Shown here one piece after another: positions 8,623 to 54,135 of a stretch of 55,170 nt of DNA; the first letter of the stretch is position 1, and each line of letters opens with the position of its first letter. Location of the stretch: positions 1 to 55,170 of IMG/VR virus record IMGVR_UViG_3300025607_000090. One strand, given 5' to 3'. Origin of the DNA: a virus (taxonomy: Duplodnaviria > Caudoviricetes). Below the pieces are notes generated by a model, which saw only the letters and a program-made list of their open reading frames with translations, was not told where the DNA came from and did no database searches. Both the position numbers and the translations under genes were made by a program.

Positions 8623-8674
8623 AGTTTAGAACACTAAACCGCGTTAAGTCAACATAAAGTTTAGTTTATTAAAC
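8623..8674 (-). promoter_or_regulatory. PL promoter with two CI operators (OL)
   Basis: GTTTAG-N4-CTAAAC at 8624-8639 and GTTTAG-N4-TTAAAC at 8659-8674; minus-strand TTGACT-18-TAAACT; the same palindrome occurs between cI and cro. Confidence 0.8.
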
Positions 8675-9030
8675 TTCTGTTTGGTAAAATGTATATTTAG
8701 TTATTTGTGAGGAGTAAAAAGTGTCACTAACGAAAGGTTGATGCGTGATTTGATTTAGACTAAAGGGAGAGGCGCAAAAAATTACAAAATTTTGGAATGA
8801 GAATAATAGCCTGCCAACTCAAAGAGAGCCGAGATATTATGAGACTATAAAGCAGTTATTTGGCTGAGGGTATGACCAGTTGAAATCACCGCCCTAACTC
8901 GGTACAAATCAGAACAAGGTGTGTCAATTCTTTTTTTCGACAAAGGGACCGTTAGAGAATGGGGTCCGGTGCAATAATAATATCAGCTCAGGACACGCAA
9001 AGTGGTTCTGACATATTTGCTCCCGGAGGG

Positions 9031-9112: not shown

Positions 9113-9739
9113 CTAACTGAGCTTTTTATGGCACATTTTACACCACTTTGTTAGCCCGTCTGGCTGCTTATCGCTGGGGAAAAAGCTCGATTTGATCCTA
9201 TTGTTTTTGCACTTTGTACAGAACTTGATGTTGCGAGGCTTCTTTTTTCTTGATTCATGACAGCTTTTACACCACTTCGAAAGCCCATCTGGTTGCTTGT
9301 CGCTATTGAAGAACGAGTTATGAGGCTGGGAACGCGAACATTTGTTACATTCCTTATATGACCGACTACTTGATGGAGAAGTTAAACTTGTTTCTTTCGG
9401 CGAGATAGTATGCTCGTGGCTAACTGAAGTTCTAGCTCTAATAGGATGGTTTAATTGTCGTGGACTCGGAATAAGCTCCTTTGCCTGATGCGTTTTAGCC
9501 GACTCAATAGTCGCATGATGACTAGGGGGAACCCAATTGTTAGCCGTCTGAGTTCCATCGCTACAGTAATTAGACTTTGAATATGTTGCTTCATTAATCA
9601 CTTTTCTCTCGATGTAACCTGTTGGAGTGTCAAATCTATCATACCGAACAGTCTTCACTCTTTCTTTCTTTGAGTTCTTATTCTCCGAAAGGTAATACCA
9701 AAAGGCTGCTATCACAGCAAATACAATTAACCATTCCAT
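9113..9739 (-). CDS. Membrane-anchored protein with two CxxC...CxxC zinc-binding repeats (cassette cargo)
   Basis: N-terminal hydrophobic helix; duplicated C.KC...SFF.SDKQPDGL.KWCK.CH unit. Confidence 0.75.
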   Translation of the reverse strand: MEWLIVFAVIAAFWYYLSENKNSKKERVKTVRYDRFDTPTGYIERKVINEATYSKSNYCSDGTQTANNWVPPSHHATIESAKTHQAKELIPSPRQLNHPIRARTSVSHEHTISPKETSLTSPSSSRSYKECNKCSRSQPHNSFFNSDKQPDGLSKWCKSCHESRKKKPRNIKFCTKCKNNRIKSSFFPSDKQPDGLTKWCKMCHKKLS

Positions 9740-10240: not shown

Positions 10241-10345
10241 GGTCAAATGAGCTATGCTTCAATCGTTGATACGATGAAGTACAGCCACTTTGCGCCTAAA
10301 CATTTAGATGATGCGATCAGGCTTAACCAGTTGAACACAAATTAA
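10241..10345 (+). pseudogene. C-terminal remnant of a P2/186-like integrase
   Basis: Translates to GQMSYASIVDTMKYSHFAPKHLDDAIRLNQ, resembling the GQ.SH...GH..I..TMRYAHFAP.HL..A..LNP end of P2/186/HP1 integrases with the middle deleted. Confidence 0.7.
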
Positions 10346-10448
10346 ATAAAAACATGACGTTAGTGTTTTAACGGGGTGATTGTAACCCCATTCGCAGAGG
10401 CTAGTTTTGACTGTTCAATCAGTAGGTTGACTAGATTCGTAGCGTCAG

Positions 10449-10471
10449 AAATGACTACACTTTGACTACAT
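10449..10471 (+). repeat. Direct repeat copy 1, AAATGACTACACTTTGACTACAT (arm-type integrase site-like)
   Basis: Tandem TGACTACA at 11-bp spacing; identical 23-mer at 11988-12010. Confidence 0.8.
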
Positions 10472-10500
10472 GGGTTAGGGCAGCCTGTGGTTGCTATGGT

Positions 10501-10584
10501 ATTTAACGCCCCTCTAATAAGTGAACCAAGGCTGGTATGACAGCCTTGGTGAATCTTAATTTAGAGGCTTGTGATCTGTTGGCT
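10501..10584 (-). repeat. attC-like integron cassette site (left array)
   Basis: Minus strand: R'' AGCCAAC overlapping the stop codon, CCTCTAA/TTAGAGG stem, ACCAAGGCTG/CAGCCTTGGT hairpin, R' GTTAAAT. Confidence 0.8.
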
Positions 10585-10807
10585 AGCCATTGCCGAATTC
10601 ATTACCTACAGCACCACCTGAATTGCCAGCCAAAACGTAAGACATATTGGTTTTGTTACAGTCAATCATTACACGACATGAAGGGCATTGCGCTTTATTG
10701 CCGCTAGTTGTTGCGGATTCAAATGTTGCAGTATCTCTAAAAAATATTGGAGAATTAAATCGATTTCCACATTTACATTTGATAAATGATTCTTTAATTT
10801 GGGTCAT
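10583..10807 (-). CDS. Small zinc-ribbon protein (cassette cargo); start moved to ATG 10807
   Basis: CKCG and CPSC motifs; AAGGA RBS; the longer start would lie inside the upstream attC. Confidence 0.7.
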   Translation of the reverse strand: MTQIKESFIKCKCGNRFNSPIFFRDTATFESATTSGNKAQCPSCRVMIDCNKTNMSYVLAGNSGGAVGNEFGNG

Positions 10808-10837
10808 TTCACTTTTCCTTGTTGATGATAAATTTGT

Positions 10838-10906
10838 TGCCAACGGCTGATTCATGATTAAACACAGCCAACTGTTTTTGTCCTTTTGAAAGACTTATAG
10901 TTAGCT
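10838..10906 (-). repeat. attC-like integron cassette site (left array, internally degenerate)
   Basis: Minus strand: R'' AGCTAAC containing the HNH stop, AAGTCTTTCAAAAGGACAAAAACAGTTGGCT arm, R' GTTGGCA complementary to the next cassette's GCCAAC. Confidence 0.65.
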
Positions 10907-11779
10907 GTAGTGTTCTTCAATACGATTCAAAGACTCTTTTTCAAATTTTAGAGCTTCTTTTCTGTTCCCCAAATATCGAGGTATGCCATCCATTGCCATA
11001 AAGCCACCAATTGGTTTATCGTGGTGACCAATAATTAAACCACCAAAACAATTTGACGCGCTGCAACCACTAATTACAGATGAATTATTTGTAATTAATA
11101 TATTTTTAGGGCGTACTAAAATTTCTACACCATTCCTTAAAAATCGACCTCGATTAATAATAACTTTGTTAGGAGGGCAAAATTTTATTTCAAATAAAAT
11201 TTTTCTATGAGCTTCTCTGACTGTCAATGTCGTGCCAACTAATTGAATATCCCAAGATTCAGTAGAGTAATAAAGTTGATTGTTTTTGATATGAAGAATT
11301 GGAGAATTGAATTCATCAAAAATAACAAGATTCAATAATAAATGCCCATCAGCCAAAATTAGAGCAATCAATGGTGTCCCATCAACACTAATTGGAACCA
11401 TTGCAGTGCCATACCCTTGATCTTGACAAGTAAAGGTATTACTACCAATTTCGACCGTTGCATTGTTTCCTGCGAAATGTAAGTTATATGGTTTAGAAAC
11501 ACCCTCCTTTAGATTATGCGGATTTTCATTAGCAAGGCTTACAACTTCTTTTGGTAATAAACCACCTGTTTTTTCTCTGTGATGTTGGTCGCAGAGTAAT
11601 GTTATTTCATCAGAAACATGTCGTTGAACTTCAGCCCACTCTTCCATGTGCTCATATTCATAAAGCGGTATTCCACAAATAACACAACCAAAACCACATC
11701 GTTGACGGACTTCTCTCTGAATTGGTAATGGAATATTTCTACTATTACATTGTTCTATAACTTTCAAGATAACCTCCAT
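10901..11779 (-). CDS. HNH endonuclease with beta-rich C-terminal domain (cassette cargo)
   Basis: R.IP..I.REVRQRCGFGCVICG...EYEH...ITLLCDQHH; alternative TTG start at 11767 after GGAGG. Confidence 0.88.
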   Translation of the reverse strand: MEVILKVIEQCNSRNIPLPIQREVRQRCGFGCVICGIPLYEYEHMEEWAEVQRHVSDEITLLCDQHHREKTGGLLPKEVVSLANENPHNLKEGVSKPYNLHFAGNNATVEIGSNTFTCQDQGYGTAMVPISVDGTPLIALILADGHLLLNLVIFDEFNSPILHIKNNQLYYSTESWDIQLVGTTLTVREAHRKILFEIKFCPPNKVIINRGRFLRNGVEILVRPKNILITNNSSVISGCSASNCFGGLIIGHHDKPIGGFMAMDGIPRYLGNRKEALKFEKESLNRIEEHYS

Positions 11780-11788
11780 GTGATGAAT

Positions 11789-11820
11789 GCAGCTAATATT
11801 TGTATATCAAACATGCTCAT
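11789..11820 (-). other. attI-like cassette entry site (left array)
   Basis: ATGAGCATGTTTGATATACAAAT-ATTAGCTGC; near-copy of 52088-52118; TTAGCTG complements the HNH cassette's R'' CAGCTAAC. Confidence 0.65.
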
Positions 11821-11987
11821 ACCATAAAAATAATTTATGAAATAATACATCTAAAAATAACGTATTAACTCTATTTCGGTGTGTAGGGTAAGCCGGAGAA
11901 ACGAGCATGCCTACTTTGTCGGCTTGTAACTAATTGACTATACGCAGTTATTTTAAACAGGCAATAAATAACTGAGCATAGCTTTAA

Positions 11988-12010
11988 AAATGACTACACT
12001 TTGACTACAT
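11988..12010 (+). repeat. Direct repeat copy 2, AAATGACTACACTTTGACTACAT
   Basis: Identical to 10449-10471; both copies are followed by TAGGGCA..TGTGGTTG. Confidence 0.8.
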
Positions 12011-12061
12011 AGAACGTAGACATTGTGGCTTATTTTGATAGGGCATGTGGTTGGCTGTTTT

Positions 12062-12074
12062 TAAGTTATTGATT
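12062..12074 (-). promoter_or_regulatory. IHF-binding consensus in the att-like region
   Basis: AATCAATAACTTA matches WATCAANNNNTTR; lies between the arm-type repeat and the tRNA fragment. Confidence 0.6.
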
Positions 12075-12088
12075 TTAGGTGCTCTATA

Positions 12089-12116
12089 GGCGGTTCAAGT
12101 CCCCCCGTCCACACCA
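12089..12116 (+). other. tRNA 3'-end fragment (tRNA-Leu-like att core), not a full tRNA
   Basis: GGCGG-TTCAAGT-CCCCC T-arm (one mismatch), 7-nt acceptor strand, ACCA end; no D or anticodon arm upstream. Confidence 0.75.
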
Positions 12117-12122
12117 AAATTA

Positions 12123-12155
12123 TAAAGCCCGTAACTCATTGAGTTACGGGCTTTT
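12123..12155. terminator. Bidirectional rho-independent terminator downstream of cI
   Basis: AAAGCCCGTAACTC-ATT-GAGTTACGGGCTTT perfect stem. Confidence 0.85.
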
Positions 12156-12222: not shown

Positions 12223-12873
12223 CTATTCCTGCATAAATGCGCCGATAACCAAGCCACAAACCTGGACCCCATCTTCGGGCTTTATTAGTTCATGCCTGTC
12301 ATTTAACGGTTTCAGGTATTGCTGGCCGCTTTCGTCTTCCATTAACTGCTTAAAAGTGCAGGCGCTACCAAGGCGGGCAACCACCCGCTGACCAGGCATT
12401 GCGCTTCGATCTGGATCTACAAAAATTATGGTGCCTTCTGGATAACTGCGCATACCTGGGAACGCTGCGGTCATCGAGTCGCCTTTAACTTGCAGCGCAT
12501 AAGTACGCGGACCGGCATTTCTTACCGGGCAGGGATAGTACTCGGTAGATTCATCCAACGGTGCTAATTGGCCTGCTTCACAAAAAGCACCGGCCTGAAT
12601 CCAACTGATTAAGGGAACTGGCTTAACATGAGGCACTGATATTGTATTTTCACTATCCACAGCCCTTGTTGGAGAGCCAGTGCCATAAAGCAACCAATCA
12701 GGATCAACGCCTAATACTTTACAAAGTAATATTAAATTTTTACCGCTAGGGTTTGCTGTGCCTTTTCTCCACTGGCTAATCGTACCTTTTGAGATACCTG
12801 TTTTATTTATAACATCAACGGAGCGGAGCTTTAACTCGCTCATTCTTTTAATTATGCGATCTGAAATATTCAT
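12223..12873 (-). CDS. cI: CI-like repressor (HTH plus S24 autopeptidase)
   Basis: HTH (GISKGTISQW), VPLISWIQAG cleavage site, GDSM and TFK catalytic dyad; ATG 12873 preferred over TTG 12882. Confidence 0.95.
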   Translation of the reverse strand: MNISDRIIKRMSELKLRSVDVINKTGISKGTISQWRKGTANPSGKNLILLCKVLGVDPDWLLYGTGSPTRAVDSENTISVPHVKPVPLISWIQAGAFCEAGQLAPLDESTEYYPCPVRNAGPRTYALQVKGDSMTAAFPGMRSYPEGTIIFVDPDRSAMPGQRVVARLGSACTFKQLMEDESGQQYLKPLNDRHELIKPEDGVQVCGLVIGAFMQE

Positions 12874-12874
12874 A

Positions 12875-12937
12875 GTTAACAATGCTAAACCTTTTTTGGT
12901 TTATTGTTATGGACTTATTGAGTTTAGACTGCTAAAC
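12875..12937. promoter_or_regulatory. OR operator region (three operators)
   Basis: GTTTAG-ACTG-CTAAAC (12922-12937), GTTAAC-AATG-CTAAAC (12875-12890), degenerate copy at 12899-12914. Confidence 0.8.
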
Positions 12938-12971
12938 TTTTTGGTAAATTAATGATTCGGCGGTAAGGGAA

Positions 12972-14627: not shown

Positions 14628-15491
14628 ATGACAAATACAGCGAAGGTAATCAACTTTCCAGTACGTAACACTGAGAGCGAGAATGAATACGTGAAAGCGG
14701 ATTTAGATAATGGTTACACGCGACTGGCCAATACCCTATTTGAAGCGTTGGCCAGTAATCCAGCTAAGCTGGCAGGGCGAGAATATCAGGTGTTTTGCGC
14801 AATCGTGTTAAAGACCTACCGTTTTCACAAAAAAACCGATTGGATAGCTCAGTCACAAATTGTTGAAATAACCGGCATTAGTAAAAGTAATGTCTCTGAT
14901 TTGATTAAATCACTTATAAACAAGTGTGTCGTAATTAAGTCTGGTAGAAATATTGGTGTAAACCCTGTGATTTCTGAGTGGAAGCAGTTCTCAAATCCAA
15001 GAACAAAAGTTCTCGAATCTAAGAACTCGAGTTCTCCAATTCAAGAACAAAAGTTCTCGAATTCGACCCCTACAATAAGAAAGAAACTTATACATAAGAA
15101 TATTAATAATATTACTTGTGCGTTAACCGCCATTTCACCCGTTGAGAAAACGAAACCTACTCGCATTAAAAAACCGCAGGCCTTTAAAGATTTCTTTTCG
15201 CTATACCCAGCTCACCGACGTGGTGGTTCAGATGCCCAGGCATGGAAAGTTTGGAAATCTGAAAAGTTAACAGACCAGGACTCCACCGATGTAATCAACT
15301 GGCTAACCGCAGCAGCTCAATCTAACTCGCAATGGCGAACCGATGCTAATGGCCAATTTGTTTTCGGCATCACTCGATTCATTCGAGAGCGCTTGTGGCT
15401 AACCCCAGTCCCTATTGCTCAGCAAGTTAAGCGCGACATCAACGCTGTCAGTCAATCAACCCAAGCAATACCAGCCGGCTTTAGGAGCTAA
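14628..15491 (+). CDS. Lambda O-like replication initiator
   Basis: ADLDNGYTRLAN.L, KTY.FHKK.DWIA motifs; internal iterons. Confidence 0.92.
   Translation: MTNTAKVINFPVRNTESENEYVKADLDNGYTRLANTLFEALASNPAKLAGREYQVFCAIVLKTYRFHKKTDWIAQSQIVEITGISKSNVSDLIKSLINKCVVIKSGRNIGVNPVISEWKQFSNPRTKVLESKNSSSPIQEQKFSNSTPTIRKKLIHKNINNITCALTAISPVEKTKPTRIKKPQAFKDFFSLYPAHRRGGSDAQAWKVWKSEKLTDQDSTDVINWLTAAAQSNSQWRTDANGQFVFGITRFIRERLWLTPVPIAQQVKRDINAVSQSTQAIPAGFRS
14987..15113 (+). repeat. Replication origin: four 22-bp-period iterons plus an AT-rich tract
   Basis: GTTCTC.AAT..AAGAAC at 14987, 15009 and 15031, partial copy at 15053, then AT-rich 15075-15113. Confidence 0.85.
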
Positions 15492-42604: not shown

Positions 42605-45600
42605 ATGACTACCAGAGCTGAATATTTAATTGAGCAAAACAACCAAGGTTTATTGACTGGACGAGAAAAGCAAATGTTCGACATCGCCGTTGAACGAGGA
42701 TTGATTAAGCCGCCACAAGTAGATACAGAAACCACAGAGTCAGAAGATAAAGGCGGCATGACGGCGGCTTTCGGTGCTGGTGTGGATAAAGTTCAGGAAC
42801 TTGGCTATCGTGCTGTCAAAGGCTTTACTGATGTTGGCGCTCCAGAAGAAGAACAAACAAACGTTGTTGGTCGCGCCATCGGACAGGGTGGGTCACTGTC
42901 TAAGTGGGCGCAAGAAGGTATCGATCGCAACATTGATGAACAAAAGGATTACGAACCAACCGTTGGATCTTATAAGGACGTAGACTCGATTAACGATGCT
43001 GGCTCTTATGTTGGTGAAATGGTTGCTGGCTCTTTGCCATATATGGCTGCTGCAGTGTCGGGTGTCGGTGCTTTTGGTATGGCTGGCGGTTTGTCAGAGG
43101 AAGCTTACGACAAACAGCCAGAAACAGAAAAGAACGCTGCTCGCGCCGTGGCGTCCGGTGCTGGTCAAATGGCGCTTGAGCGTCTTGGCATTAGAGGCTC
43201 AATGGGGCAAATTGGCAAAGACATTCTTAAAGATGGTGTATTAAAGACTGCTCAGCGCTATGGCAAGGGCGATCTTGTTGATGCAGTTAAAGATCCAAAC
43301 GTTGCCCGTCGTTTGCTTAAAGGTGCGACTTGGGAAGGCATGACGGAAACTGGCCAAGAAGCATTGGCCCAATGGGGCGCGGGTGCGTCACTTGATCAAA
43401 TTCATGGGCTAGATGAAGCATTTGTTGGAGGCTTTGTAGTTGGTGGTACTGTCCGTTCAGGAGCCGAAAGCGCTCAGCGCATTATCACTTGGCAACAAAA
43501 AGCGGGCGAAGTGGCCGAGAATGGTATTAACGCACTTGTTGAACAAGGTATACCTCAAGATCAAGCTATAGAACAGGTTCGAGCGCAAATTATTGAATCA
43601 GCGATAAAACAAGGGCAGAGTGAAGCTGTGGCAGCCGGTACCGCTGCTAGAATGATGAAAGAGCGTTATGGTATCGACCATGAAATATTTACCCCGGTAG
43701 CCAATGACGTTGCTGAGCAGCGCAGAGTTTGGGAGGAAAACCGCGATCAAAAAATGCAAGCGAACCGCCAGCGCTCTGAGCAAATGCGGGTAAAACATGA
43801 AACTCAAGATTTAGACGATGCACTTAATGGTGATTCGGCGCCAACAGTTGACGATCTTTTAGGTGATGCGGGTAACATTCAAGGCCCATTACCAAGCGAG
43901 CAAGTAGCGACTGAAATCGTAGAAGATGCTCCGTTATCCGTCAGCGAGCGTCGCGAACTAATGAATCTGCGCCTTGAGAAGCAACGAGTTGAAGGCGGTG
44001 TTGGTAGCATACAAGACAAGTTGTCTGAAAAAAGCGCGCCAACGGCAACTGATCTTATTGGCGAAGCAGGCTATGTTCAAGGTCCGGTACCGAGTGAGCA
44101 ATATGCTAATGTTCAAAACACAGTTGTTGATCCGTTTAATGGTGAGCAGTCAATAAAACCCACCGAGGAAAGCGCAGCTGTACCGCCAACGGTAGCGGAG
44201 CGCCGACAGGCATTGAATGATAAACTGGAAAAACAGCGAGTCGAGGGCGGCATTGGTGATGCTCAGCAGAAGCTTGCTGGAGACACTGCACCAACGGTTA
44301 GCTATTTACTAGGCGATGCTGGCCGCGTTAAAGATCCAGATGAAATAACTGATTACAACAATAGCGACGATAGTATATTAGCGCCGCCTGATATTCCGAT
44401 AATTAAATCAAACGAAGATAATAAAGCGCCCTCAATCGAGGGCGTTGTTGTTTCTGAAGGGGAATTACCAATAGATTTGGCAGAGAACTCTATTGGGAAG
44501 GTGGAGGCTCCGGTGCCAAGCTTAGAAACCAACAATAAAATTGATATAGCGGCGCATGAAGCTGCTACTAGCCCAACGAATGACCAGGCTGAACCAAGCC
44601 AGGCGCAAAAGGATGCTGGCAATTATAAAATGGGGCGTATAGAGCACAGCGGCTTTAAAATTGGTATAGAAAACCCACAAGGTTCAACGCGCTCGGGTCA
44701 AGACAAAGGTGGAAAGGATTGGTCTGTGACCATGAAATCACACTATGGCGACATCACTGGCACCAAAGGGGCTGATGGTGATGCGTTAGATGTGTTTGTT
44801 AAGCCATCAACTGAGCATAGCGATAAAGTATTTGTGATTGATCAAATAGAGCCAAGTAATGGCAAGTTTGATGAACATAAGATCATGATGGGCTATGACT
44901 CTAAAAAAGAAGCTCAAGAGGCATATTTAGCTAACTACGGTAAGGACTGGCAAGGTATTGGTAACATTACCGAGTCACCGATCAGTGAGTTTAAAGATTG
45001 GGTTAAAAACGGCGAAACGACAAAACCATTTACGGTCACGCCTCAGCCAGGCTCTAATCAGGCTAAAATCGATAATTTGTCCAGTAGCTTAGAAACCAAG
45101 CAAGCTGACAACAGCGTAGTATCCTATAAAAGGGAAGTCGCCAGCACTGTCATTCGCACAGGTAATAAACCCATCAAAGGCATTAGCCTTGTCGAGGCCA
45201 AAACCATTGCTAAAGAGTTTATGGATGAATACAACGGAAATATCAAACTAGCTCCCATTGTTATAAAGAATCAAGAGGATATTTATGGATCAGAGGGAAC
45301 TGCAGAAAAATTCGGAGTGCTCAAAGGTGCGTACCATGGCGAACAAGGCGTATTTACCCTTACCGCGAGTAATCTGTCAAATAGGGCTGACGCGCGAGAA
45401 ACGCTACGGCATGAAATACTCGGTCACTACGGTTTGGACACGTTTAAAAAAGCAGATAAACAGGCTGTTATCGACAAAATAATTGCATCAGAGAATGAGC
45501 CAAACCTAAAAGTCATTTGGGGTAAAATTAAAGCCGATAGCCACTACAAAACATTAACACCTGAACTTCAAGCCGAAGAAGTGTTTGCGCACATAATAGA

Positions 45601-48565
45601 AAATCATCGCAATGGCTTTCAGCGCATTTATGATCGAATCATTGCATGGTTAAAGCAAGCAATGCGTAAGGCAGGGTTAAATAAGTACCCATCATCAGTT
45701 AGCGAACTTCACCGCCTAGCTGAAACTATTTCCAAGCAGATTAAACAGGGCAAGCAAGGTCGAGCTCAGTCGTTAGGATCTAGTAGTAAAACCCCTGAGC
45801 AAAAAAAAGAATCGACCATGTTGCGCAGGGCTACCGAAAATTCATCAATAGCAGACGAAGAAAAATATTCTAAAGATTACTTTATTCGCCGCGTTCAAGA
45901 CAAATTCCAGCGTCTACTTGTTATCCAGCGTTCTTTAGCCGTCAACGAAGATAACGACGCTTACATGGCAGAGGAGGCCTTTCACGGAAAAGTAAGTGAG
46001 GATTTGCGAAAACTAGAGCTCGAGCGTACAGATAAGATAGCTAACACCATGGCTAAGCATCAATTATCACAAGATGAAGTTGATTTATACTTAATTGCAA
46101 AGCACGCCAAAGAGCGTAATGCTTATATCGATACCATCAATCCAGAACTAAAAGGCGAAGGCTCAGGCATGAGCAATGAGCAGGCGCAATCGATTTTAGA
46201 TAAGGCCATTTTTGAAGAAAAATACCCCGCACTAGAAGCTGTCTCGGATTTGGTTTATTCGATGCTTAAGCAAAACCGAAAAATGATGGTTGAGTTTGGC
46301 CTTGAAGCGCAGGATGCGATCGATAACTGGCAATCTCAATATAAGTTTTATGTACCGCTAAAAGGTTACGCTAAAGATGAAGAAACCCACGCTAAGGATG
46401 ACAACGGTAAACAAGTAACACGCTATGGTGCTGGCAAGGGCTTTAACATTAAAGGTCGCGAAACCATAAAGGCGATGGGGCGTCGTTCTTTAGCTGAATC
46501 GCCGTTGCTTCATTCCATCCAAGATACGACTCAAGCGATTATTCGCGCACGTAAGAATGAGGTTGGTAATACTTTCCTAAAATTAGTAAACGACAACCCA
46601 GATAGCGATTTATGGGAAGTGTTTACCGCCCAAAAGCCAGACATAACGCGTGGCGAAATAACTAAGGACGGTAAAGCAACAATCGGTCCGGTCAAGATGA
46701 CAGCAATGGCCATGAAAAACAGTGATGATTATTTCAAGGTTAAAGTTGATGGAGTGGAGAGTTACATCAAAATTAAAGATGTTGTGCTCAAAGATACTAT
46801 GGCCAACTTAGGTGTTGACGAAATGGGAGCCTTTGTTAGGAATATTGGAAAGGTTACACGAACACTAAGCGCTTTAGTTACAACTTGGAACCCTGAATTC
46901 ATGCTGACTAACTTTACGCGCGACGTTCAAGCGGCGGTTGCTAATGTATTAGCTGAAACTCAAGTCGCCGATGGCAAGGCACTTAATACTGAAAATCTGG
47001 CGCGCAAGATGGTTGGATCCATGCCTAAGGCGATGGTGGTTTTACGCCAGGGATTCAGAAACAACAAGTTTGATGGCAGCGGTAAGTTTAATGATCCTAA
47101 ATGGAGTAATTACCTAAAAGAATTCCTCGAGTCTGGCGCTAAAACTGGCTGGGTTAATCAAAAAGACGTTAAGGAATTGGCCAGCGAACTCAAAAGCTCA
47201 ATATCGCGCGCGAGCAAGACTAAGGCTGGTAAGGTTCGGCGCCTTGGTAAAAACGTCGCAGATTTTGTTAGTGACTATAATGATATCGTTGAAAACTCGG
47301 CACGTTTTAGTGTTTATTACCACGCCAGAGAGCAGGGTATAAGTGTAAAGCAAGCCAGTAGCTTAGCCAAAAACTTAACGATTAACTTTAATCGTAAAGG
47401 TGAAATGGGCGCTACGATGAATGCCCTATACATGTTCTCGAATGCCAGCGTTCAAGGTACGGCTAATATGTTACGCGCACTGGGTACCCCAAAAGACAGA
47501 TCTAAGTCGATGTGGGATCCTAAATTCTACAATTTATCGCAAAAATTGGCCGTGGGTTCGATTTTTGGCACGATTGCCATGGCACAAGTCATGCGAGAAA
47601 TGGGCGGTGATGATGAAGATGGCATTGCATTTTACGATAAGGTACCCGATTACGTTAAGGCAACCAATTACGTGATTATGACAGGTGGTAAGGATTACAT
47701 AGCGATACCAATGCCCTATGGCTATAATTTTTTGGCAGGCTTGGGTCATTCTTTAGATGGTTTAATTCAAGGCGAGTCAGTGGGAAGGCAAGCGACCAAA
47801 ATAGCATTGTCGGCGGTTGGTACCTTTTCTCCACTAGGTATTACAGAATCTGAAAATACGGCAGTATCAATGGTTAAAATGGCGGCTCCGACCGTTATAA
47901 AACCATTCGTTGAAATGGCCGTAGACGAGAAGTTTACCGGCGGGAATATCTACCCTGATCAGCGTGGCTACAATGTTAAAAAAGCCGATGCCAATCGTGG
48001 GGGTAAGCATACTTGGGAGTGGTCTAAAAACTTTACTTCTTGGCTAAATGAAGCCAGCGGTGGTACTGAATATAAAAGCGGAGGCATGGATATTGCGCCT
48101 CAGTCTATTGATCACATGGTTAAGTTTATGGGGGGAGGTGTATTACAGTTCGGGTTGCGCTGGCAGAACTTAGCTGCCAAGGCTATGGCAGGGAAAGAAA
48201 TTGAATCCCGAGACATTCCTTTTTGGCGGCGCTTCCATAAGCAGTTAAATCCTAAGCAAACGATTGGCGAATTCTATGATGTTAAAGAAAGTTTAGCGGC
48301 TTACAAAGCTGATTTAAATTACATGCGCGGTGCTGACCGGGCTAATTATCTATCAAAGTACAGAAATCATCTGATGTTAAATAATTACGCTTCTGGTATC
48401 GATAAGCAATTACGCGCACTTAATAAGCGAAAGCGGGGCATTGAAGCTAGCCGTTTATCAGATAATGAAAAAGAGATAAGCTTGCAGCGTATTGAAGATC
48501 TAAAAATTGACCACACTATGCGCTTCGCCAAGAAACGCCATCAGTTGGGAGTTAAGTATCTTTGA
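42605..48565 (+). CDS. Large polyvalent / ejection protein (inorganic pyrophosphatase-like, zincin HExxxH, LPD38-like C-terminus)
   Basis: GNYKMG...IENP.GS.RSG...HYG...GADGD.LDVF...FDEHK; LRHEILGHYG..AEE; VPDY.K..N....IPMPYG. Confidence 0.85.
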   Translation: MTTRAEYLIEQNNQGLLTGREKQMFDIAVERGLIKPPQVDTETTESEDKGGMTAAFGAGVDKVQELGYRAVKGFTDVGAPEEEQTNVVGRAIGQGGSLSKWAQEGIDRNIDEQKDYEPTVGSYKDVDSINDAGSYVGEMVAGSLPYMAAAVSGVGAFGMAGGLSEEAYDKQPETEKNAARAVASGAGQMALERLGIRGSMGQIGKDILKDGVLKTAQRYGKGDLVDAVKDPNVARRLLKGATWEGMTETGQEALAQWGAGASLDQIHGLDEAFVGGFVVGGTVRSGAESAQRIITWQQKAGEVAENGINALVEQGIPQDQAIEQVRAQIIESAIKQGQSEAVAAGTAARMMKERYGIDHEIFTPVANDVAEQRRVWEENRDQKMQANRQRSEQMRVKHETQDLDDALNGDSAPTVDDLLGDAGNIQGPLPSEQVATEIVEDAPLSVSERRELMNLRLEKQRVEGGVGSIQDKLSEKSAPTATDLIGEAGYVQGPVPSEQYANVQNTVVDPFNGEQSIKPTEESAAVPPTVAERRQALNDKLEKQRVEGGIGDAQQKLAGDTAPTVSYLLGDAGRVKDPDEITDYNNSDDSILAPPDIPIIKSNEDNKAPSIEGVVVSEGELPIDLAENSIGKVEAPVPSLETNNKIDIAAHEAATSPTNDQAEPSQAQKDAGNYKMGRIEHSGFKIGIENPQGSTRSGQDKGGKDWSVTMKSHYGDITGTKGADGDALDVFVKPSTEHSDKVFVIDQIEPSNGKFDEHKIMMGYDSKKEAQEAYLANYGKDWQGIGNITESPISEFKDWVKNGETTKPFTVTPQPGSNQAKIDNLSSSLETKQADNSVVSYKREVASTVIRTGNKPIKGISLVEAKTIAKEFMDEYNGNIKLAPIVIKNQEDIYGSEGTAEKFGVLKGAYHGEQGVFTLTASNLSNRADARETLRHEILGHYGLDTFKKADKQAVIDKIIASENEPNLKVIWGKIKADSHYKTLTPELQAEEVFAHIIENHRNGFQRIYDRIIAWLKQAMRKAGLNKYPSSVSELHRLAETISKQIKQGKQGRAQSLGSSSKTPEQKKESTMLRRATENSSIADEEKYSKDYFIRRVQDKFQRLLVIQRSLAVNEDNDAYMAEEAFHGKVSEDLRKLELERTDKIANTMAKHQLSQDEVDLYLIAKHAKERNAYIDTINPELKGEGSGMSNEQAQSILDKAIFEEKYPALEAVSDLVYSMLKQNRKMMVEFGLEAQDAIDNWQSQYKFYVPLKGYAKDEETHAKDDNGKQVTRYGAGKGFNIKGRETIKAMGRRSLAESPLLHSIQDTTQAIIRARKNEVGNTFLKLVNDNPDSDLWEVFTAQKPDITRGEITKDGKATIGPVKMTAMAMKNSDDYFKVKVDGVESYIKIKDVVLKDTMANLGVDEMGAFVRNIGKVTRTLSALVTTWNPEFMLTNFTRDVQAAVANVLAETQVADGKALNTENLARKMVGSMPKAMVVLRQGFRNNKFDGSGKFNDPKWSNYLKEFLESGAKTGWVNQKDVKELASELKSSISRASKTKAGKVRRLGKNVADFVSDYNDIVENSARFSVYYHAREQGISVKQASSLAKNLTINFNRKGEMGATMNALYMFSNASVQGTANMLRALGTPKDRSKSMWDPKFYNLSQKLAVGSIFGTIAMAQVMREMGGDDEDGIAFYDKVPDYVKATNYVIMTGGKDYIAIPMPYGYNFLAGLGHSLDGLIQGESVGRQATKIALSAVGTFSPLGITESENTAVSMVKMAAPTVIKPFVEMAVDEKFTGGNIYPDQRGYNVKKADANRGGKHTWEWSKNFTSWLNEASGGTEYKSGGMDIAPQSIDHMVKFMGGGVLQFGLRWQNLAAKAMAGKEIESRDIPFWRRFHKQLNPKQTIGEFYDVKESLAAYKADLNYMRGADRANYLSKYRNHLMLNNYASGIDKQLRALNKRKRGIEASRLSDNEKEISLQRIEDLKIDHTMRFAKKRHQLGVKYL

Positions 48566-48625: not shown

Positions 48626-48946
48626 TTAATTTGTTAGTTTTTGTTTACTCATAAGTTTTTTGATAAGAAATATTGGCGAGTAAAAAACGTATAGAGCAAT
48701 CAGTCCGCTAAATATAAACCATGGAATTTCTATTACGTACACTATATTGCCAGCAAAGCCTGAGTTGAATATGTAGCAGCTTGCTATAAAGCTGCTAGAT
48801 AAGGTGTAAAGAAAAATACGCTTTTCAGGGTTGTTTATCACCCTATTGATTAGCCAGCCAAACAGGATATAAGTGAGCAACATTACTATTACGCGCAAAA
48901 GCGCCTTAGAGCTGACATAAACAATTTTAGTCTTTTCCCTATTCAT
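48626..48946 (-). CDS. Three-TM membrane protein (moron, possible superinfection exclusion)
   Basis: Hydrophobic, AT-rich, convergent with the ejection gene. Confidence 0.55.
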   Translation of the reverse strand: MNREKTKIVYVSSKALLRVIVMLLTYILFGWLINRVINNPEKRIFLYTLSSSFIASCYIFNSGFAGNIVYVIEIPWFIFSGLIALYVFYSPIFLIKKLMSKQKLTN

Positions 48947-49118
48947 CGTACTTTTTCTAATACTAAACTGATATCAAAGCAACCAGAAAATGCATGTTGT
49001 AAGTGAGCCACCAAGATACAACACCAAAATTAGAATATTCTATTTATTTAACACATTGTTTGTTATAGATTATTAGTATAATCTAGTATGAATTATGAAA
49101 TGTCGGATCTCGGGGTTA

Positions 49119-49149
49119 TCGAGCAATTCGACTAATATACTGTTATACG
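49119..49149 (+). other. attI-like cassette entry site (right array, first)
   Basis: GAGCA-N16-GTT; GACTAAT-ATACT-GTTATAC simple-site layout; TATAAT at 49077 upstream. Confidence 0.6.
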
Positions 49150-49162
49150 TTTTAGGGGCTAT

Positions 49163-49582
49163 ATGATTTCAATATCTCAGAAAATAAGAACATTGTTTGA
49201 ATTAGGCGGGGAGAAAATTGATCTTCCTTACTTTTCTGGGTTTCCAAGAAATGCGTGTGAGGGAGCATCACTATTTCTTGGCGCTACTCTAAAAGAAATA
49301 TTTCCAATGTCTCATATAGAGTATCTGAAAGGATATGATGAAAACGGGGCTATTCATTTTTGGCTAGAAGTTGACGCTAAGGTTTTCGATATCACAGCGG
49401 ATCAGTTTCCTGAAATACCAGAACCACTTTTTGGAGTTGCTCATCAACCTTTAGCTGAAATTTATCGTGATATTGAAAGGAAAGAAATAACTGATGCGCT
49501 CAGAGAATCTGATGTGACAACAGAAACATATAAACATTCGCTAATGATGGACATTAGGCATTATTTAAGCATAAACGTATAA
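49163..49582 (+). CDS. Cys-His-Asp (transglutaminase/papain-like) protein (cassette cargo)
   Basis: FPRNAC, HFWLE and DITADQF motifs. Confidence 0.75.
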   Translation: MISISQKIRTLFELGGEKIDLPYFSGFPRNACEGASLFLGATLKEIFPMSHIEYLKGYDENGAIHFWLEVDAKVFDITADQFPEIPEPLFGVAHQPLAEIYRDIERKEITDALRESDVTTETYKHSLMMDIRHYLSINV

Positions 49583-49623
49583 ACAAAAACCTCAATCGTA
49601 CGGCTTTTAGGTTGGTGTTAGGT
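49577..49623 (+). repeat. attC-like site 1 (very short)
   Basis: GTATAAAC-AAA-AACCTCAA...ACGGCT..TTAGGTT-GGT-GTTAGGT; stop codon inside R''. Confidence 0.75.
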
Positions 49624-49657
49624 TATTACCAGATTAATTCACTTTAAGGGGAAATAC

Positions 49658-50116
49658 ATGAGTTGGACTTTTGAGAGCATAAAAACATCACTCGAAGAAA
49701 TGACGTTTGAACTAGATGATGAGAAAAGTTGTTCTAATGGAAGAGTAGTTAAGAGTAATTATTTGCCGCTTTCTAAAGATGTAAATGAAGTTAATACCGT
49801 CGCATCATACATTTATGGCGAAGACAACGTTAATGCTGATTTGATACAGCTTTCAGCTAGTAAAGGGAATAAAAATGATTTAAGTGAAACTGAATTAAAT
49901 TTTTATGCGCTTGTAAAAAAAATAACCTCACTTTTTGCTGATACAGATTTTAATCTTCCTGACATATTTAATTTGGGTTCTGAAGATTTCTTAGTCGGTA
50001 ATTACACATTACGAGTTGATAATGAAGAAAACCAATGTAATGCTTTTATCGCACTGTCGAGTTCTTTTGAGCAGGCAATGGATGTTCGTTCAAGACACTT
50101 ATATTCCGCAGAGTAA
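49658..50116 (+). CDS. Acidic hypothetical protein (cassette cargo)
   Basis: AGGGG RBS; bounded by GTTAGGTTATT and AATAACCTAGC. Confidence 0.75.
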   Translation: MSWTFESIKTSLEEMTFELDDEKSCSNGRVVKSNYLPLSKDVNEVNTVASYIYGEDNVNADLIQLSASKGNKNDLSETELNFYALVKKITSLFADTDFNLPDIFNLGSEDFLVGNYTLRVDNEENQCNAFIALSSSFEQAMDVRSRHLYSAE

Positions 50117-50119
50117 ATA

Positions 50120-50221
50120 ACCTAGCAAGAACCTAAACCAGACGGCTAGAACTATCACACTTTTAGCAACAAAGACGCAAAAAACTGCGCCAGCACGTCG
50201 CAGGTTAGGTTGGCGTTGCGG
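50120..50221 (+). repeat. attC-like site 2
   Basis: Near-copy of 50994-51094; AACCT/AGGTT stem; GACGCAAAAAACTGCGCCA shared. Confidence 0.85.
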
Positions 50222-50399
50222 CTGGATAATTTATAGTTTTGTTTAAAACAGGTAAAAAACGAGCTCCTGTAACGCAAAATAAGCGACGCACTCAGTGTGG
50301 GTAATACATTTTATACCCTTATTTTGACGTGTTTTTGTAATTTTTTATAAATTCTACAGCCTTATAGTTAGCTGCCAATGTTTCAGCAGTTCACTACTA

Positions 50400-50879
50400 C
50401 TAAATTTTTACAAATTTAGATGGGTCCGAATTAACTATGGTGTTTATTGTTGATTGAGGTTTTCTGTAATCACTTGCAAGCATATCTTGAGTGACGTCAG
50501 TGCTACCGTGATACGCGTGATAAATCTCCTTTTTTTCATTATCGTTTAATTTTTCTTTACGTGTAGGTAAATCTGAAAAACGACTTTTTACAGCTTTATC
50601 AAAGGTTGCTGCTGTTTCAATTGTTTTCTCTACAGCTCCTATATTTTTAGTTATCTCCATAACCTGATTCCAATTCTGCTCGCGTGAATACTTGCGTAAT
50701 TGTCGGTTTAGATCGTCATTTAGTATTACGGCATGTTGTTTTAGTTCACGTGCCGATTTTTTTATTTTTGCTTCTTCAGAAGCAGAAAGTTCTTCTTGGT
50801 TAATTTGTTCAAAGCGTTGATTTACTACTTCAGGGTTTAGTAAACTAGAAGGGTTGTTGGGGTCAAATAGTCCGCTCAT
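50400..50879 (-). CDS. Coiled-coil protein with C-terminal HTH, inverted inside a cassette
   Basis: TQDMLASDYRKPQSTINTIV HTH-like; lies between GTTAGCTGC (50367) and GCAGCTAAC (50992). Confidence 0.7.
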   Translation of the reverse strand: MSGLFDPNNPSSLLNPEVVNQRFEQINQEELSASEEAKIKKSARELKQHAVILNDDLNRQLRKYSREQNWNQVMEITKNIGAVEKTIETAATFDKAVKSRFSDLPTRKEKLNDNEKKEIYHAYHGSTDVTQDMLASDYRKPQSTINTIVNSDPSKFVKI

Positions 50880-50899
50880 TGAATTTCTCTCTAATAAAT

Positions 50900-50923
50900 T
50901 GATAATCTGATATCAGGTTATCA
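50900..50923. promoter_or_regulatory. Imperfect palindrome upstream of the HTH gene (candidate operator)
   Basis: TGATAATCTGA-TA-TCAGGTTATCA. Confidence 0.5.
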
Positions 50924-50993
50924 GAAATCAGATTGCTGTCAAATTATATTTAACAATCAGTTGGTCAGCGAATTTATTCATGAGAGAGTAAGC

Positions 50994-51094
50994 AGCTAAC
51001 AAGCACCTCAACTAGACGGCTAAAGCTGTCACATTTTTTAGCAAAGAGACGCAAAAAACTGCGCCAACACGCCGCGGTTAGGTGGGTGTTAAGC
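50994..51094 (+). repeat. attC-like site 3 (best preserved)
   Basis: R'' AGCTAAC, CACCTCAAC/GTTAGGTG L-box stem with an extra C, central hairpin, R' GTTAAGC. Confidence 0.9.
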
Positions 51095-51140
51095 ATTCTA
51101 CGCTTGTTTCAACAAACGTAATTTAAATGGGAATTGAGTA

Positions 51141-51881
51141 TTGAAATTTAAAGATATAAAACCTGAAGTTTTAGGAGTGATTTATGGCCTTCTTGTATTA
51201 AACCTCTGGTATGTATCCTCATTGGCAATAGAGCACAGAATTGTGCCAAGTACATACGACTACTTTTTGCAAGCTATTGTAGTATTGTCTGCAGCATTTT
51301 TCGGTTCCTTTTCTGCATTCTATTTAAACACCAGAAAAGAAAAACTTGGGAAAATACAAGGGAATATTTCCGCATTAAACTCTGCTCTGTTTTTAACGCT
51401 AAGGCAAATAAATGCTCTGTTAAATCTAAAAAAAGCAATAGAGCCTCTAGAAAGTGACAATATACGGTTTCTAAAGTTACCAGCAATGTATGCTGCGGAT
51501 TATAGCGATTTAAAAATAGAGTTAAATCGCTTGGAATTTTTGCTAAAAGACCACCCAAATTTATTGTTAAATTTATCTATTGAGCAAGGGAGGTTCGAAA
51601 ATGCAATTCGAATTACCAATATGAGAGCAGAATTCCATCACGAAGATCTGCAGAAATCTCTAAACGATAATAACTTTTGCATTGAGCATCCCTCTCTTGA
51701 AGAATTAGTTACAGCAGTAGGCCCTAGAGTGGTCGGTAACGCAATTAAACTTACCGATGGTATGTATGAACAAATATTTTTAAGTGTCGACAGTTTAACT
51801 GAGGTTCACGAAAGACTTTTTGAAATAGCAAAAGAGAACTTTCCAAATGAGCGATTCGTTAAATTTCAACAAAATGCCTAA
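51141..51881 (+). CDS. Two-TM membrane protein with helical cytoplasmic domain (cassette cargo)
   Basis: TTG start; bounded by GTTAAGCATT and AATGCCTAAT with the stop inside R''. Confidence 0.75.
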   Translation: MKFKDIKPEVLGVIYGLLVLNLWYVSSLAIEHRIVPSTYDYFLQAIVVLSAAFFGSFSAFYLNTRKEKLGKIQGNISALNSALFLTLRQINALLNLKKAIEPLESDNIRFLKLPAMYAADYSDLKIELNRLEFLLKDHPNLLLNLSIEQGRFENAIRITNMRAEFHHEDLQKSLNDNNFCIEHPSLEELVTAVGPRVVGNAIKLTDGMYEQIFLSVDSLTEVHERLFEIAKENFPNERFVKFQQNA

Positions 51882-51931
51882 TAAGAAGCTCAACCAGACG
51901 GCTAACCCCACCTAAAAAGGTAGTGTTACTG
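51876..51931 (+). repeat. attC-like site 4 (left arm, truncated)
   Basis: GCCTAAT-AAGAA-GCTCAACCAGACGGCTAA matches the left arms of sites 2 and 3. Confidence 0.7.
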
Positions 51932-52087
51932 CTTTGGGGATACATTCTGACAAGCTCATTTATTGATTGATATCGAATATGGCTCATATATCAGTGCAAC
52001 TCACAAGTAATGCTTGCCATAAGTGACATAAGAGTTCATTTTGTAACGCTAATTTACAGGATTTCTGCGTATATCTAAAATAGGTAA

Positions 52088-52118
52088 ATGAGCATACCTG
52101 TTATACAAATGTTATGCC
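52088..52118 (+). other. attI-like cassette entry site (right array, second)
   Basis: ATGAGCATACCTGTTATACAAAT-GTTATGCC; near-copy of minus-strand 11789-11820. Confidence 0.7.
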
Positions 52119-52136
52119 TAAGGAAGTTAATCACGT

Positions 52137-53891
52137 ATGAATCAAGATTGGATTCTCCAAAAAAAAGAGACTCGTCGCACTTTTTCAAAATCAACTTGGG
52201 TTCCTTTGAGAGCTGCTTTTGGTAACGAAAAAGGTAACGTTAAAAAGATAGGTTATACAAACGAATTTTTTGGATGTGGTTCTGTTGCATTTTCTCCGGA
52301 TCATCGCGATATCGCGGAAAAATTGAGTTGGAGTGATATCGGAATCAGCTCAACTATCGGTCCATATGCATACGAAGATGGCTACTACTCAACCATAGAT
52401 GAATATCAATATCATGATAAAGAGCCGATCGGTGTTCATCTCGTCCTTGAATTATCTCTACCTGTAGTCGGTGGGCGACAATGGACATTGACCCCTGATC
52501 TTGTTGCTGCACTCCGCCTCATAAAAGAGGGAGATAATTGGGTAAGGCCGGAAGAAAATTTTGTAGTAGTGGCTCGGGAAGTTCTTGATGAAAAAGGTGA
52601 TCAGCGCCTGATCGAAATCAAGAGAGAATTTCTTCTCGACTATTTAGCTGCTAGGAACCTAGCTCTCCGACTTTCTTACTACCGTCAACGAGTGGAAAAT
52701 GTAACCGCTCTTGAAACCAGTGAATACGCTGACTTGGAAAACCATCAAGAAGAGCGCGATGATGGACGATATGAGTTACTGATTCGTGATGTAAATGACG
52801 TTTTTGGCGGAAGCTGGGCGATGTTCCGTGCTTGGCGAACTGATGTTGATGAAGATGAAGACGCACCGGTGATGGGACGAGAAAATAACGAAAACACTGA
52901 TTATGAAAAATCTGAGGGAACTCGTGGTGGGTTTCATGGCGTACGAGTCGAGGGCGAGTTTTGGCGCGATGAATGGATAGAGCACAAAGGCGTAAGTAAT
53001 CGCGTTCGTGGGGATGTAGACACAAACTTGCCTCAATTTATAGTTGAGACTGATGGCATGCGTTTGGCGTCTGCCGAGTTAAACAACGAAGATGTTGGTC
53101 GGTGGCTCTGGTTTCGCTCAGGTATAGTAAATGAGCTTCTAGGGCTTCGCGGATTTTCTCTCAATTGGTATACGGCACAAACAGGTGAAATTAAATCCAC
53201 ATCTGGGTATTCAATTCATATTGGTATAAATATTTCAGATTTAATAACAGTCTACGCCTATGACATTGCTCGCCTGCCGGCTTGGGAACAGCATATTTGG
53301 GCAGCTCAGAATGTTGTTCCTGATGGAAAGGTTTCAAATGAATTATTAGCAGCACAGGTTAAAGCTGAACCTGCCTCTACCCATGCGGTTGAGGAGCTTC
53401 TTTTCAAGGTGATGGAGATGCTTGAGGGCGGGTTTAGGCAGACATTCAATGTTTCACTTTACTCACATGATCTAGATCGCACTGAAACTGAAAAGTATAT
53501 CTCCCGTTTCGCGAGCAAGGATCAAGCATCATTGCTGAGATTGGCAAAAGAGCTAGTTCGTGTTTTTTCCGACCGGCTTGATGTACGTGAACTTCGAAAA
53601 CTATCAACACACTTAAATAAGGATAAATTGGGCTCAAATAAGCTCCTGCAGGATGTACTTGCTCAGAAAGTTGGCGCTGATAAGGCCCGGGAAGTCTTTG
53701 GCCCAATTGTGGGGGCGTATGATATGCGAATAGGTGACGCTCACCCTACTAGCTCCAAGATTGGAGATGCTTTGAAGCTCGCTGGAATCGACGATAGTGA
53801 GTCATTTTTGCGACAAGGTGAGCAATTGATTTCCAATTTTAGCCAATCGATTTGGTGGGTTGGGAAACTACTATTTGAAGAACCAGAGTGA
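52137..53891 (+). CDS. 584-aa protein with C-terminal RxxxxH (HEPN-like) motif (cassette cargo)
   Basis: Helical C-terminus with LGSNKLL...YDMRIGDAH; bounded by GTTATGCC and GGCATAA. Confidence 0.7.
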   Translation: MNQDWILQKKETRRTFSKSTWVPLRAAFGNEKGNVKKIGYTNEFFGCGSVAFSPDHRDIAEKLSWSDIGISSTIGPYAYEDGYYSTIDEYQYHDKEPIGVHLVLELSLPVVGGRQWTLTPDLVAALRLIKEGDNWVRPEENFVVVAREVLDEKGDQRLIEIKREFLLDYLAARNLALRLSYYRQRVENVTALETSEYADLENHQEERDDGRYELLIRDVNDVFGGSWAMFRAWRTDVDEDEDAPVMGRENNENTDYEKSEGTRGGFHGVRVEGEFWRDEWIEHKGVSNRVRGDVDTNLPQFIVETDGMRLASAELNNEDVGRWLWFRSGIVNELLGLRGFSLNWYTAQTGEIKSTSGYSIHIGINISDLITVYAYDIARLPAWEQHIWAAQNVVPDGKVSNELLAAQVKAEPASTHAVEELLFKVMEMLEGGFRQTFNVSLYSHDLDRTETEKYISRFASKDQASLLRLAKELVRVFSDRLDVRELRKLSTHLNKDKLGSNKLLQDVLAQKVGADKAREVFGPIVGAYDMRIGDAHPTSSKIGDALKLAGIDDSESFLRQGEQLISNFSQSIWWVGKLLFEEPE

Positions 53892-53912
53892 TATGAATAA
53901 CCAGTTCAGCGG

Positions 53913-53963
53913 GCATAAGGCAATATAGTCAATCGGACGGCTAAAGCTGTCGCTGCGTTAATT
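53913..53963 (+). repeat. attC-like site 5 (degenerate)
   Basis: GCATAA(GG)C-AATAT-AGTCAATCGGACGGCTAAAGCTGTC shares GACGGCTAAAGCTGTC with site 3. Confidence 0.7.
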
Positions 53964-54135
53964 CTCATAGTTCCCATACAAACCCTAATGCCTAAACCAA
54001 CATTGGCACGATAAATTCTATGGCGCTTTATGCCCCATAACGCCTTAGGCTGAAACATTAATTATGCAGGATGAATGTGCTTGTAATCCATTGTGTGTAA
54101 ACTGTCGGTTAACTCGCATTAACTGACGTAAAACA

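Follow-up and report, generated by a model that had tools for sequence, protein, structure and literature searches.

The window that we analysed (55,170 bases) represents one provirus record of IMG/VR in full, and its genes follow a lambdoid order. The phage integrase gene occupies 1-1323 on the minus strand and is followed by ssb, rdgC, dam, a YqaJ-type exonuclease gene, and recT, all likewise on the minus strand; a cI-type repressor gene with an S24 peptidase domain lies at 12223-12882, and the rightward early, lysis, packaging, and virion genes extend up to a 1986-aa protein encoded at 42605-48565. In PHROGs, this large ORF matches giant virion proteins, with a DarB-like antirestriction family and an endolysin-like segment among the matches, and its product is more than a tail fibre. 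Two further ORFs have internal repeats: the one at 14628-15491 contains three 22-nt tandem repeats (AGTTCTC..AAGAAC, 14986-15062), which resemble the origin iterons inside the lambda O-type replication gene, and a 208-aa ORF (9113-9739) without a family match carries a Cys-rich motif repeated twice internally. Palindromes of the AGTTTAG-N4-CTAAAC type are found beside cI (12921) and ahead of the leftward operon (8623 and 8658); the operator-like AGTTTAG-N4-CTAAAC(T/C) sequences at 8623-8676 and 12884-12938 are the presumed PL and PR. The two palindrome-bearing arms enclose a low-GC stretch from 8.7 to 12.2 kb, and because the shared palindromes point to one repressor acting on both arms, this stretch should lie inside the prophage. 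A second low-GC stretch begins right of 48.6 kb and holds a repeat family shaped like integron attC sites. Scanning of the record found no tRNA genes or known RNA families, and no integron integrase gene (intI) is present anywhere in it; the only tyrosine-recombinase match (139-702) is the phage integrase, so that the absence of an adjacent intI, already stated in the original prediction, holds for the record as a whole.

Three attI-like sites lie in this provirus, two of them in the right-hand low-GC stretch. Site 3 is the attI-like core of a second sequence type (49116-49145, plus strand, GTT at 49142-49144) and is preceded by a leader at 49041-49115; together, 49041-49145 are 79% identical over 105 nt to G153:C55:3461-3567, where the similarity likewise stops at GTTA and other cassettes with the same attC type follow. 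Behind site 3 runs a four-cassette array (49146-51933, plus strand) with ORFs at 49163-49582, 49658-50116, 50400-50879 (minus strand), and 51141-51881, and with attC sites at about 49583-49625, 50119-50219, 50993-51095, and 51875-51933. These attC sites were found as repeat families D2, D4, and D7; their identification rests on repeats and folds and used neither IntegronFinder nor HattCI. The attC core GACGGCTA occurs seven times, against 0.98 expected, the site at 50993-51095 folds end to end (z -2.55), and about 25 copies of the same attC family are present in each of the genomes G169 and G213. With at least three full attC sites of one family, the right-hand array meets the CALIN definition (at least two attC sites and no intI nearby). 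The non-coding start of its third cassette (50212-50362) is 85-89% conserved at no fewer than four places in G169 and may represent a regulatory element carried by cassettes or else a small family of genes. Upstream of site 3, a 76-nt segment at 48889-48964, overlapping the start of a 106-aa ORF, is 77-79% identical to sequences in G169 C88 and G213 C21; a similar stretch lies behind a tyrosine recombinase gene in G169 C248, before a leader of the site 1 type, and the segment could be an attachment or junction sequence.

Site 1, an attI-like core of the type known from Shewanella, follows at 52085-52114 (plus strand) with its putative crossover GTT at 52111-52113 and a module leader at 51968-52084. 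The leader segment 52006-52055 is 88% identical to G169:C248:4296-4344, which directly follows a GCATGC palindrome box, and a sigma-70-like match, TTTACA-17-TAAAAT, lies at 52053-52081, upstream of the core. The cassette behind site 1 (52112-53968, plus strand) consists of a 584-aa ORF (52137-53891), for which family searches gave no match, and a weak or partial attC at about 53925-53968; the attC core is present at 53936, and the attC-like site as a whole folds no better than shuffled sequences (z +0.8). Past the cassettes, the right edge of the record contains a dispersed repeat of about 100 nt (53955-54055) and then the Endonuclease I gene (endA). The repeat has at least 12 copies that are 75-91% identical on many G169 and G213 contigs, including large ones, and looks like a host REP- or MITE-like element. 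The closest relative of this endA is just 69% identical, and the attC type of the window was not found in the retrieved flanks of endA relatives.

Site 2 lies in the immunity region, flanked by cI and the early-left operon, at 11794-11823 on the minus strand. Its core is of the same type as site 1, and the triplet at the crossover position (11797-11795) is ATT, not GTT. Reading along the minus strand, the order is cI, a terminator hairpin (12124-12154), a tRNA-3'-like fragment (12085-12112, plus strand), repeat copy A (12010-11979), a GCATGC box (11917-11899), site 2, two genes, an attC, and repeat copy B (10471-10440). The elements from the terminator to the GCATGC box belong to a conserved left block (11824-12155), and copy B to a conserved right block (10342-10507), both on the minus strand. 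The stretch between the blocks (10508-11796, minus strand) contains a 292-aa HNH-like ORF (10901-11779, start probably TTG at 11767) and a 90-aa ORF (10583-10855), both on the minus strand; results from Pfam, PADLOC, and NCBIfam were empty or weak for these two, and the HNH assignment is a lead only. The stretch ends in an attC at about 10578-10501 (minus strand, R' GTTAAAT at 10507-10501) whose bottom strand folds at -16.1 kcal/mol (z -5.17), which none of 200 shuffles equalled. Copies A and B form a 32-nt direct repeat (family D18, 91% identical) that contains the 19-nt TGTAGTCAAAGTGTAGTCA; the latter was also found in four unrelated viral contigs, but in other contexts. The same layout of repeat A, tRNA-like fragment, and repeat B is present in G135 C33 and G169 C470, an arrangement of unexplained role that resembles attP arm sites.

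The left block is homologous to G135 C33 (L141:5569-5904) and shows 83% column identity to G169 C470, where it adjoins chromosomal genes. In G135 C33, other cassettes with an attC of another kind stand behind the left block, and the sequence becomes homologous to the window again precisely at the GTT of the last attC, for a further 150 nt or so, with an overall column identity of 83%. Since the flanks are conserved while the cassettes differ and both junctions fall at GTT, we interpret this layout, on the strength of the alignments, as the footprint left by an attI x attC insertion. The ATT of the window copy, where its relatives have GTT, indicates that this copy may no longer recombine, and site 2 may therefore be a frozen copy.

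The original prediction had singled out a 22-of-27 match between the sequence at 52088 (plus strand) and that running leftward from 11820 (minus strand), and a recount gave the same identity, with arms at 52088-52114 and 11794-11820 that are 81% complementary; at any other position of the window, either 27-mer reaches no more than 17-18 of 27. A third site with GAGCA, 16 nt, and GTT is also present as described, at 49121-49144. What could not be upheld was the loose pattern GAGCA-N16-RTT as a statistical handle, as it is not enriched: eight matches stand against 5.02 +/- 1.99 in shuffled sequences, and 7 of 100 whole-window shuffles reach eight. We also compared the 80 nt upstream (5') of 65 non-overlapping ORFs, in gene orientation and in all pairs, and here the pair scored highest (22, with runners-up at 20, 19, and 19); one of 250 mononucleotide shuffles and two of 250 Markov resamples attained a score of 22, but this comparison was devised post hoc, with the region length and k=27 picked after the match had been seen. 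The proteins downstream of sites 1 and 2 are unrelated to each other (best E 3.3), and the motif is absent upstream of 16 homolog loci of these two proteins in viral contigs (7 for the 584-aa ORF of site 1 and 9 for the other, one locus having merely 18 nt of upstream sequence). The evidence within the window alone would have left the case undecided.

Further evidence came from copies in other genomes. We scanned 401 genomes, from the order to which a Pseudoalteromonas genome belongs, for the attC-core pattern; nine matched, G169 and G213 with three matches each on small contigs. A 27-mer pattern with mismatches then gave additional copies in G169, and in the family of this genome copies are present in 3 of 12 genomes (six in G135, three in G169, and one in G153), while reversed-pattern controls gave no match. 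All copies have in common the consensus A[TC]GAGCATGC[CT]TGnTATACAAATGTTA, with unrelated sequence beyond it. The claim that the similarity ends at the cassette start was thus borne out by independent copies, as 13 of 14 pairwise local alignments stop 0 to +4 nt after GTTA, the exceptional pair extending to +40. On the 5' side, the reach of the similarity varies by subfamily; site 1 shares its last 27-41 nt with other copies and, with G169 C248, the 50-nt leader segment described above. The genes behind the copies differ at every copy. Their upstream neighbours are ordinary genes of the chromosome, encoding an AsnC regulator, a chemoreceptor, a pilin-like protein, and a lipase, and downstream lie genes of accessory types (HEPN, DUF7946/7947, an IS91 transposase, a 2'-5' RNA ligase, and unknowns), several with an attC end behind them. 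In one of these cassette arrays (L116, G169:C444:3653-4792), the IS91-family transposase gene is the first behind a core of the Shewanella type. Every copy has GTTAC or GTTTAC 110-240 nt upstream; a cassette without an ORF, bounded by GTTAC and GTTA, was considered and dropped, since the similarity passes GTTAC in several copy pairs. An assignment of sites 1 and 2 as attC was likewise rejected: in four modules (site 1, site 2 on both strands, L139, and L141), the five module-strand combinations gave folds that did not surpass shuffled sequences (z -0.11 to -1.92), and the site 1 and site 2 modules of the window show no end-to-end stem.

We built a weight matrix from the 10 copies in G135, G153, and G169, excluding the window copies and leaving out the gapped copy of C470. 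Applied to the window, it gave 36.2 bits for site 1 and 26.8 bits for site 2, the next position scoring 7.4 and the 99.99th percentile lying at -4.0; among 1,270,161 unrelated positions the maximum was 10.8, and none reached 15. The same matrix finds attI positions beside integron integrase genes. In G153 C154 it gives a single strong match (19.0 bits, next -7.1). This match is located some 290 nt upstream of an intI with a score of 402 bits and heads the first cassette, which ends in attC. The family of genome G003, which holds Shewanella inventionis, has intI in 36 of 51 genomes, and we examined 25 intI loci out of 47 listed matches. In nine of the 25, the top match of the matrix lies 319-368 nt from the intI start and on the cassette strand, with 16.0-26.7 bits in five loci and 1.6-5.9 in four; in L174, which belongs to these nine, the printed Shewanella-type 28-mer is itself present, 319 nt from the intI start. 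In the other 16 loci there was no match at the attI position, the top scores (4.2 or less) being located elsewhere, and this attI type is thus not universal.

For the reverse test, 30-mers taken from the attI position beside intI served as probes against the 110,282 positions of the window. Site 1 was the best position for all seven Shewanella-type references (19-24 of 30), with L174 giving a tie between it and site 3, and site 2 ranked 2, 2, 2, 3, 5, 6, and 140 among the same seven. Site 3 was the best position for all three references of the second type (22-25 of 30), with 25 of 30 for the attI of G213 C117, 23 for that of G135 C7, and 22 for L175. Genome G213 has two integron integrases above the curated cut-off; in its contig C117, the site-3-like sequence lies about 315 nt from the intI start and can be aligned for about 45 nt up to the GTTA at which the first cassette begins, and in G135 C7 a site-3-like sequence lies about 345 nt from another intI. 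A LexA-box-like CTGT-N8-ACAG stands beside intI in two of the three loci that were read (G213 C117 and G153 C154, in both of which the site lies beyond it), and the corresponding motif of G135 C7 is one base off. In the second G213 integron (L092, G213:C123:144048-144361), the attI region is of another kind: it contains two direct repeats (ACCAGAAATACGGAATG...), and the LexA-box-like motif beside intI is TACTGT-N8-ACAGTA. Some comparisons were less discriminating. The G153 C154 attI matches sites 1 and 2 at just 17 of 30 positions (rank 5), the printed 28-mer matches sites 1 and 3 at 18 of 28, as do two unrelated positions, and outside the core of about 30 nt, 12 of 13 comparisons of the leaders with the G153 intI-attI spacer were unremarkable, one giving a z of 3.4.

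The original prediction was to be abandoned if the sites resembled no attI adjacent to an intI; this outcome did not occur, and the ranks point in the opposite direction, so that matrix scores and intI-adjacent references both support the attI reading of the three sites. Measured against the properties expected of an attI, a position beside a divergent intI is lacking in the record, but homologs elsewhere do hold that position; homology to an intI-linked class is met for all three; a GTT where conservation ends is met at sites 1 and 3, site 2 with its ATT being the exception; and attC-ended cassettes follow the sites, site 1 having a weak or partial attC only. A complete integron (intI, attI, and cassettes at one locus) is not present, because intI is absent. 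On these comparisons, sites 1 and 2 are assigned to the published Shewanella type (a GCGCA-type box, 16 nt, and GTT) and site 3 to a second type, seen beside intI in two genomes of another family. GAGCA, 16 nt, and GTT agree with the architecture of this attI type, whose printed site has GCGCA at the same spacing, but the evidence for a putative attI identity is the family profile together with the position beside intI, not this pattern.

The best overall explanation, which we consider probable though it is inferred from sequence comparison, is that an intI-less provirus carries three attI-type sites of two related types, each heading at least one cassette. The host chromosome would supply the integron integrase in trans, IntI would recombine the GTT of a site with the folded attC of a free cassette, and the cassette would land directly behind the site, as in an ordinary integron; in this way the phage may gain exchangeable slots for accessory genes without an intI of its own. 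The action of IntI on the present copies, promoters in the leaders, and a coincidence of capture with SOS induction are inferred; the observations that bear on SOS are the LexA-box-like motifs beside intI and the S24 peptidase domain of the phage repressor. One objection, that the 22-of-27 match is a coincidence between two AT-rich upstream regions, can draw on the sixteen longer inverted pairs in the window (the pair ranks 17th among 589) and on the loose pattern being at chance level, but independent copies predict both sites at 26.8 and 36.2 bits where the background maximum is 10.8, and we give this objection almost no weight. It is also conceivable, although in our view improbable, that the shared 27-30 nt are a promoter, an operator, or a 5'-leader element unrelated to recombination. 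At sites 1 and 2, a ribosome-binding site and start codon follow after 22-27 nt, the sigma-70-like match of site 1 ends 7 nt before ATGAGCAT and 4 nt before the 30-nt core, and the core holds a GCATGC palindrome that a regulator could bind. However, site 2 has no promoter match at that position, the operators of the phage itself are a different motif, and such an element would leave unexplained the stop at GTTA in 13 of 14 pairs, the attI position beside intI, and the attC-ended cassettes. Moreover, the roles of promoter and attI can coexist; in the accessible part of PMC3948777, the cassette promoter of Vibrio cholerae is placed 65 bp upstream of attI. Readings of the 27-mer as a sigma-70, LexA-box, CRP, or quorum-regulator sequence, made by eye and by scan, were rejected, only site 1 having a neighbouring promoter-like match.

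A weightier question is whether sites 1 and 3 belong to the phage at all, because both lie at the right edge of the record, past the last clearly phage gene. These two sites with their cassettes could be host chromosome, with the prophage lying beside or between a chromosomal intI and attI and the provirus caller having continued over cassettes of unknown function, so that only site 2 would be phage-borne; we regard this as a serious possibility, though not the favoured one. The record ends at gene boundaries, as gene-level cuts would produce, the dispersed repeat has many copies in the G169 and G213 chromosomes and is followed by the Endonuclease I gene, and a credible copy in provirus G404 is likewise at the extreme edge of its record. 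On the other hand, no intI remnant was found upstream of site 3, where the 106-aa ORF has no family match, the array has just five cassettes, and a related phage in G153 has a homologous site at a different map position, 3.5 kb upstream of the small terminase gene. This phage (52% protein identity to the window in TerS and 76% in the TerL region) carries its site-3-type site with other cassettes beside the lysis and terminase genes. The C-terminus of the 1986-aa protein, which might have marked the right prophage boundary, has no relatives in viral contigs. Exact-pattern scans of viral contigs gave four Shewanella-type matches, of which two are credible and lie in intI-less provirus records, the other two falling inside an ORF; these scans found no copy of the site 3 type, and three stricter exact motif patterns had no match in viral contigs. 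We lean towards sites 1 and 3 being phage-borne, as roughly twice as probable as not, and the question remains open.

Even if the three sites are of attI origin, they may be fossils, that is, genuine attI descendants that came with their first cassettes by illegitimate or homologous recombination and no longer recombine. The ATT crossover of site 2, the degenerate look of the attC behind the 584-aa gene, and the lack of intI in the record all fit this. Yet the cassettes in the site 2 slot of the window are not those found in G135 C33 between identical junction positions, and at four places with a site-3-type site the first cassette is a different one each time, which indicates repeated turnover, at least in the lineage; we therefore think it possible but unlikely that fossils are the whole account. 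The attI-type sites may, in a wider and still tentative interpretation that we would not yet put above even chances, be portable slots scattered over chromosomes and built into temperate phages. Each slot would consist of a 30-nt attI core between a leader and a conserved right flank; one subfamily also has a tRNA-like fragment and paired 19-32-nt repeats. A single host integrase, activated by the SOS signal that also induces the phage, would serve these slots as a distributed network. If this is true, phages could reload accessory or defence genes from the cassette bank of the host shortly before leaving the cell.

Integron cassette arrays are now seen as banks of accessory and anti-phage genes, and the routes by which cassettes get into other mobile elements are not settled. 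Three docking sites without intI in one prophage offer a concrete and testable route from the cassette bank to the phage, and at several chromosomal loci these cores stand where core genes give way to accessory ones. Our results also suggest that attI searches limited to the neighbourhood of intI have missed part of the system.

Sites at which cassettes are placed away from attI, termed attG, are short and degenerate, whereas the copies described here share a conserved 30-nt core homologous to true attI, at six loci in one genome. The available part of the attG study (bioRxiv 10.1101/2022.09.11.507474) describes these secondary sites as places where IntI puts cassettes outside the canonical integron platform. 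A different comparison is offered by the fragments of class 1 and class 2 attI in clinical resistance integrons, where, as far as the descriptions at hand go, an attI lies inside an array, like site 1 behind the four-cassette array, and where such architectures recombine with IntI1. In contrast to these, the sites of the window are of environmental chromosomal-integron types, and no resistance genes were seen.

The closest known sequence is the Shewanella-type attI, the site beside the integron integrase of Shewanella oneidensis MR-1, which is printed in PMC9892861 with a citation of Drouin et al. 2002. In the form given in the accessible text, it has the same length and register as the window copies, with a GCGCA/GAGCA box, a GCATGC-type palindrome, 16 nt, and GTT, and it matches the copies of the dispersed family at 17-20 of 28 positions and site 1 at 18 of 28. 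The window copies differ from it in having no intI, in the ATT of site 2, and in their leader sequences. The closest known arrangement, reported in the same paper, is that of the Shewanella prophage M16-3, which has a CALIN with its own attI and thus resembles our record as a prophage array without intI that starts with a host-type attI. M16-3 additionally carries a complete integron with intI, whereas this record has none and instead has three sites of two sequence types, one of them in a conserved-flank module of the immunity region. Compared with what the consulted sections say of this single published prophage CALIN with its own attI, which our analysis extends, three things are new: several sites of two types in one record without intI, a site in the immunity region within a module with conserved flanks, and the presence of the same cores at a number of dispersed loci in chromosomes.
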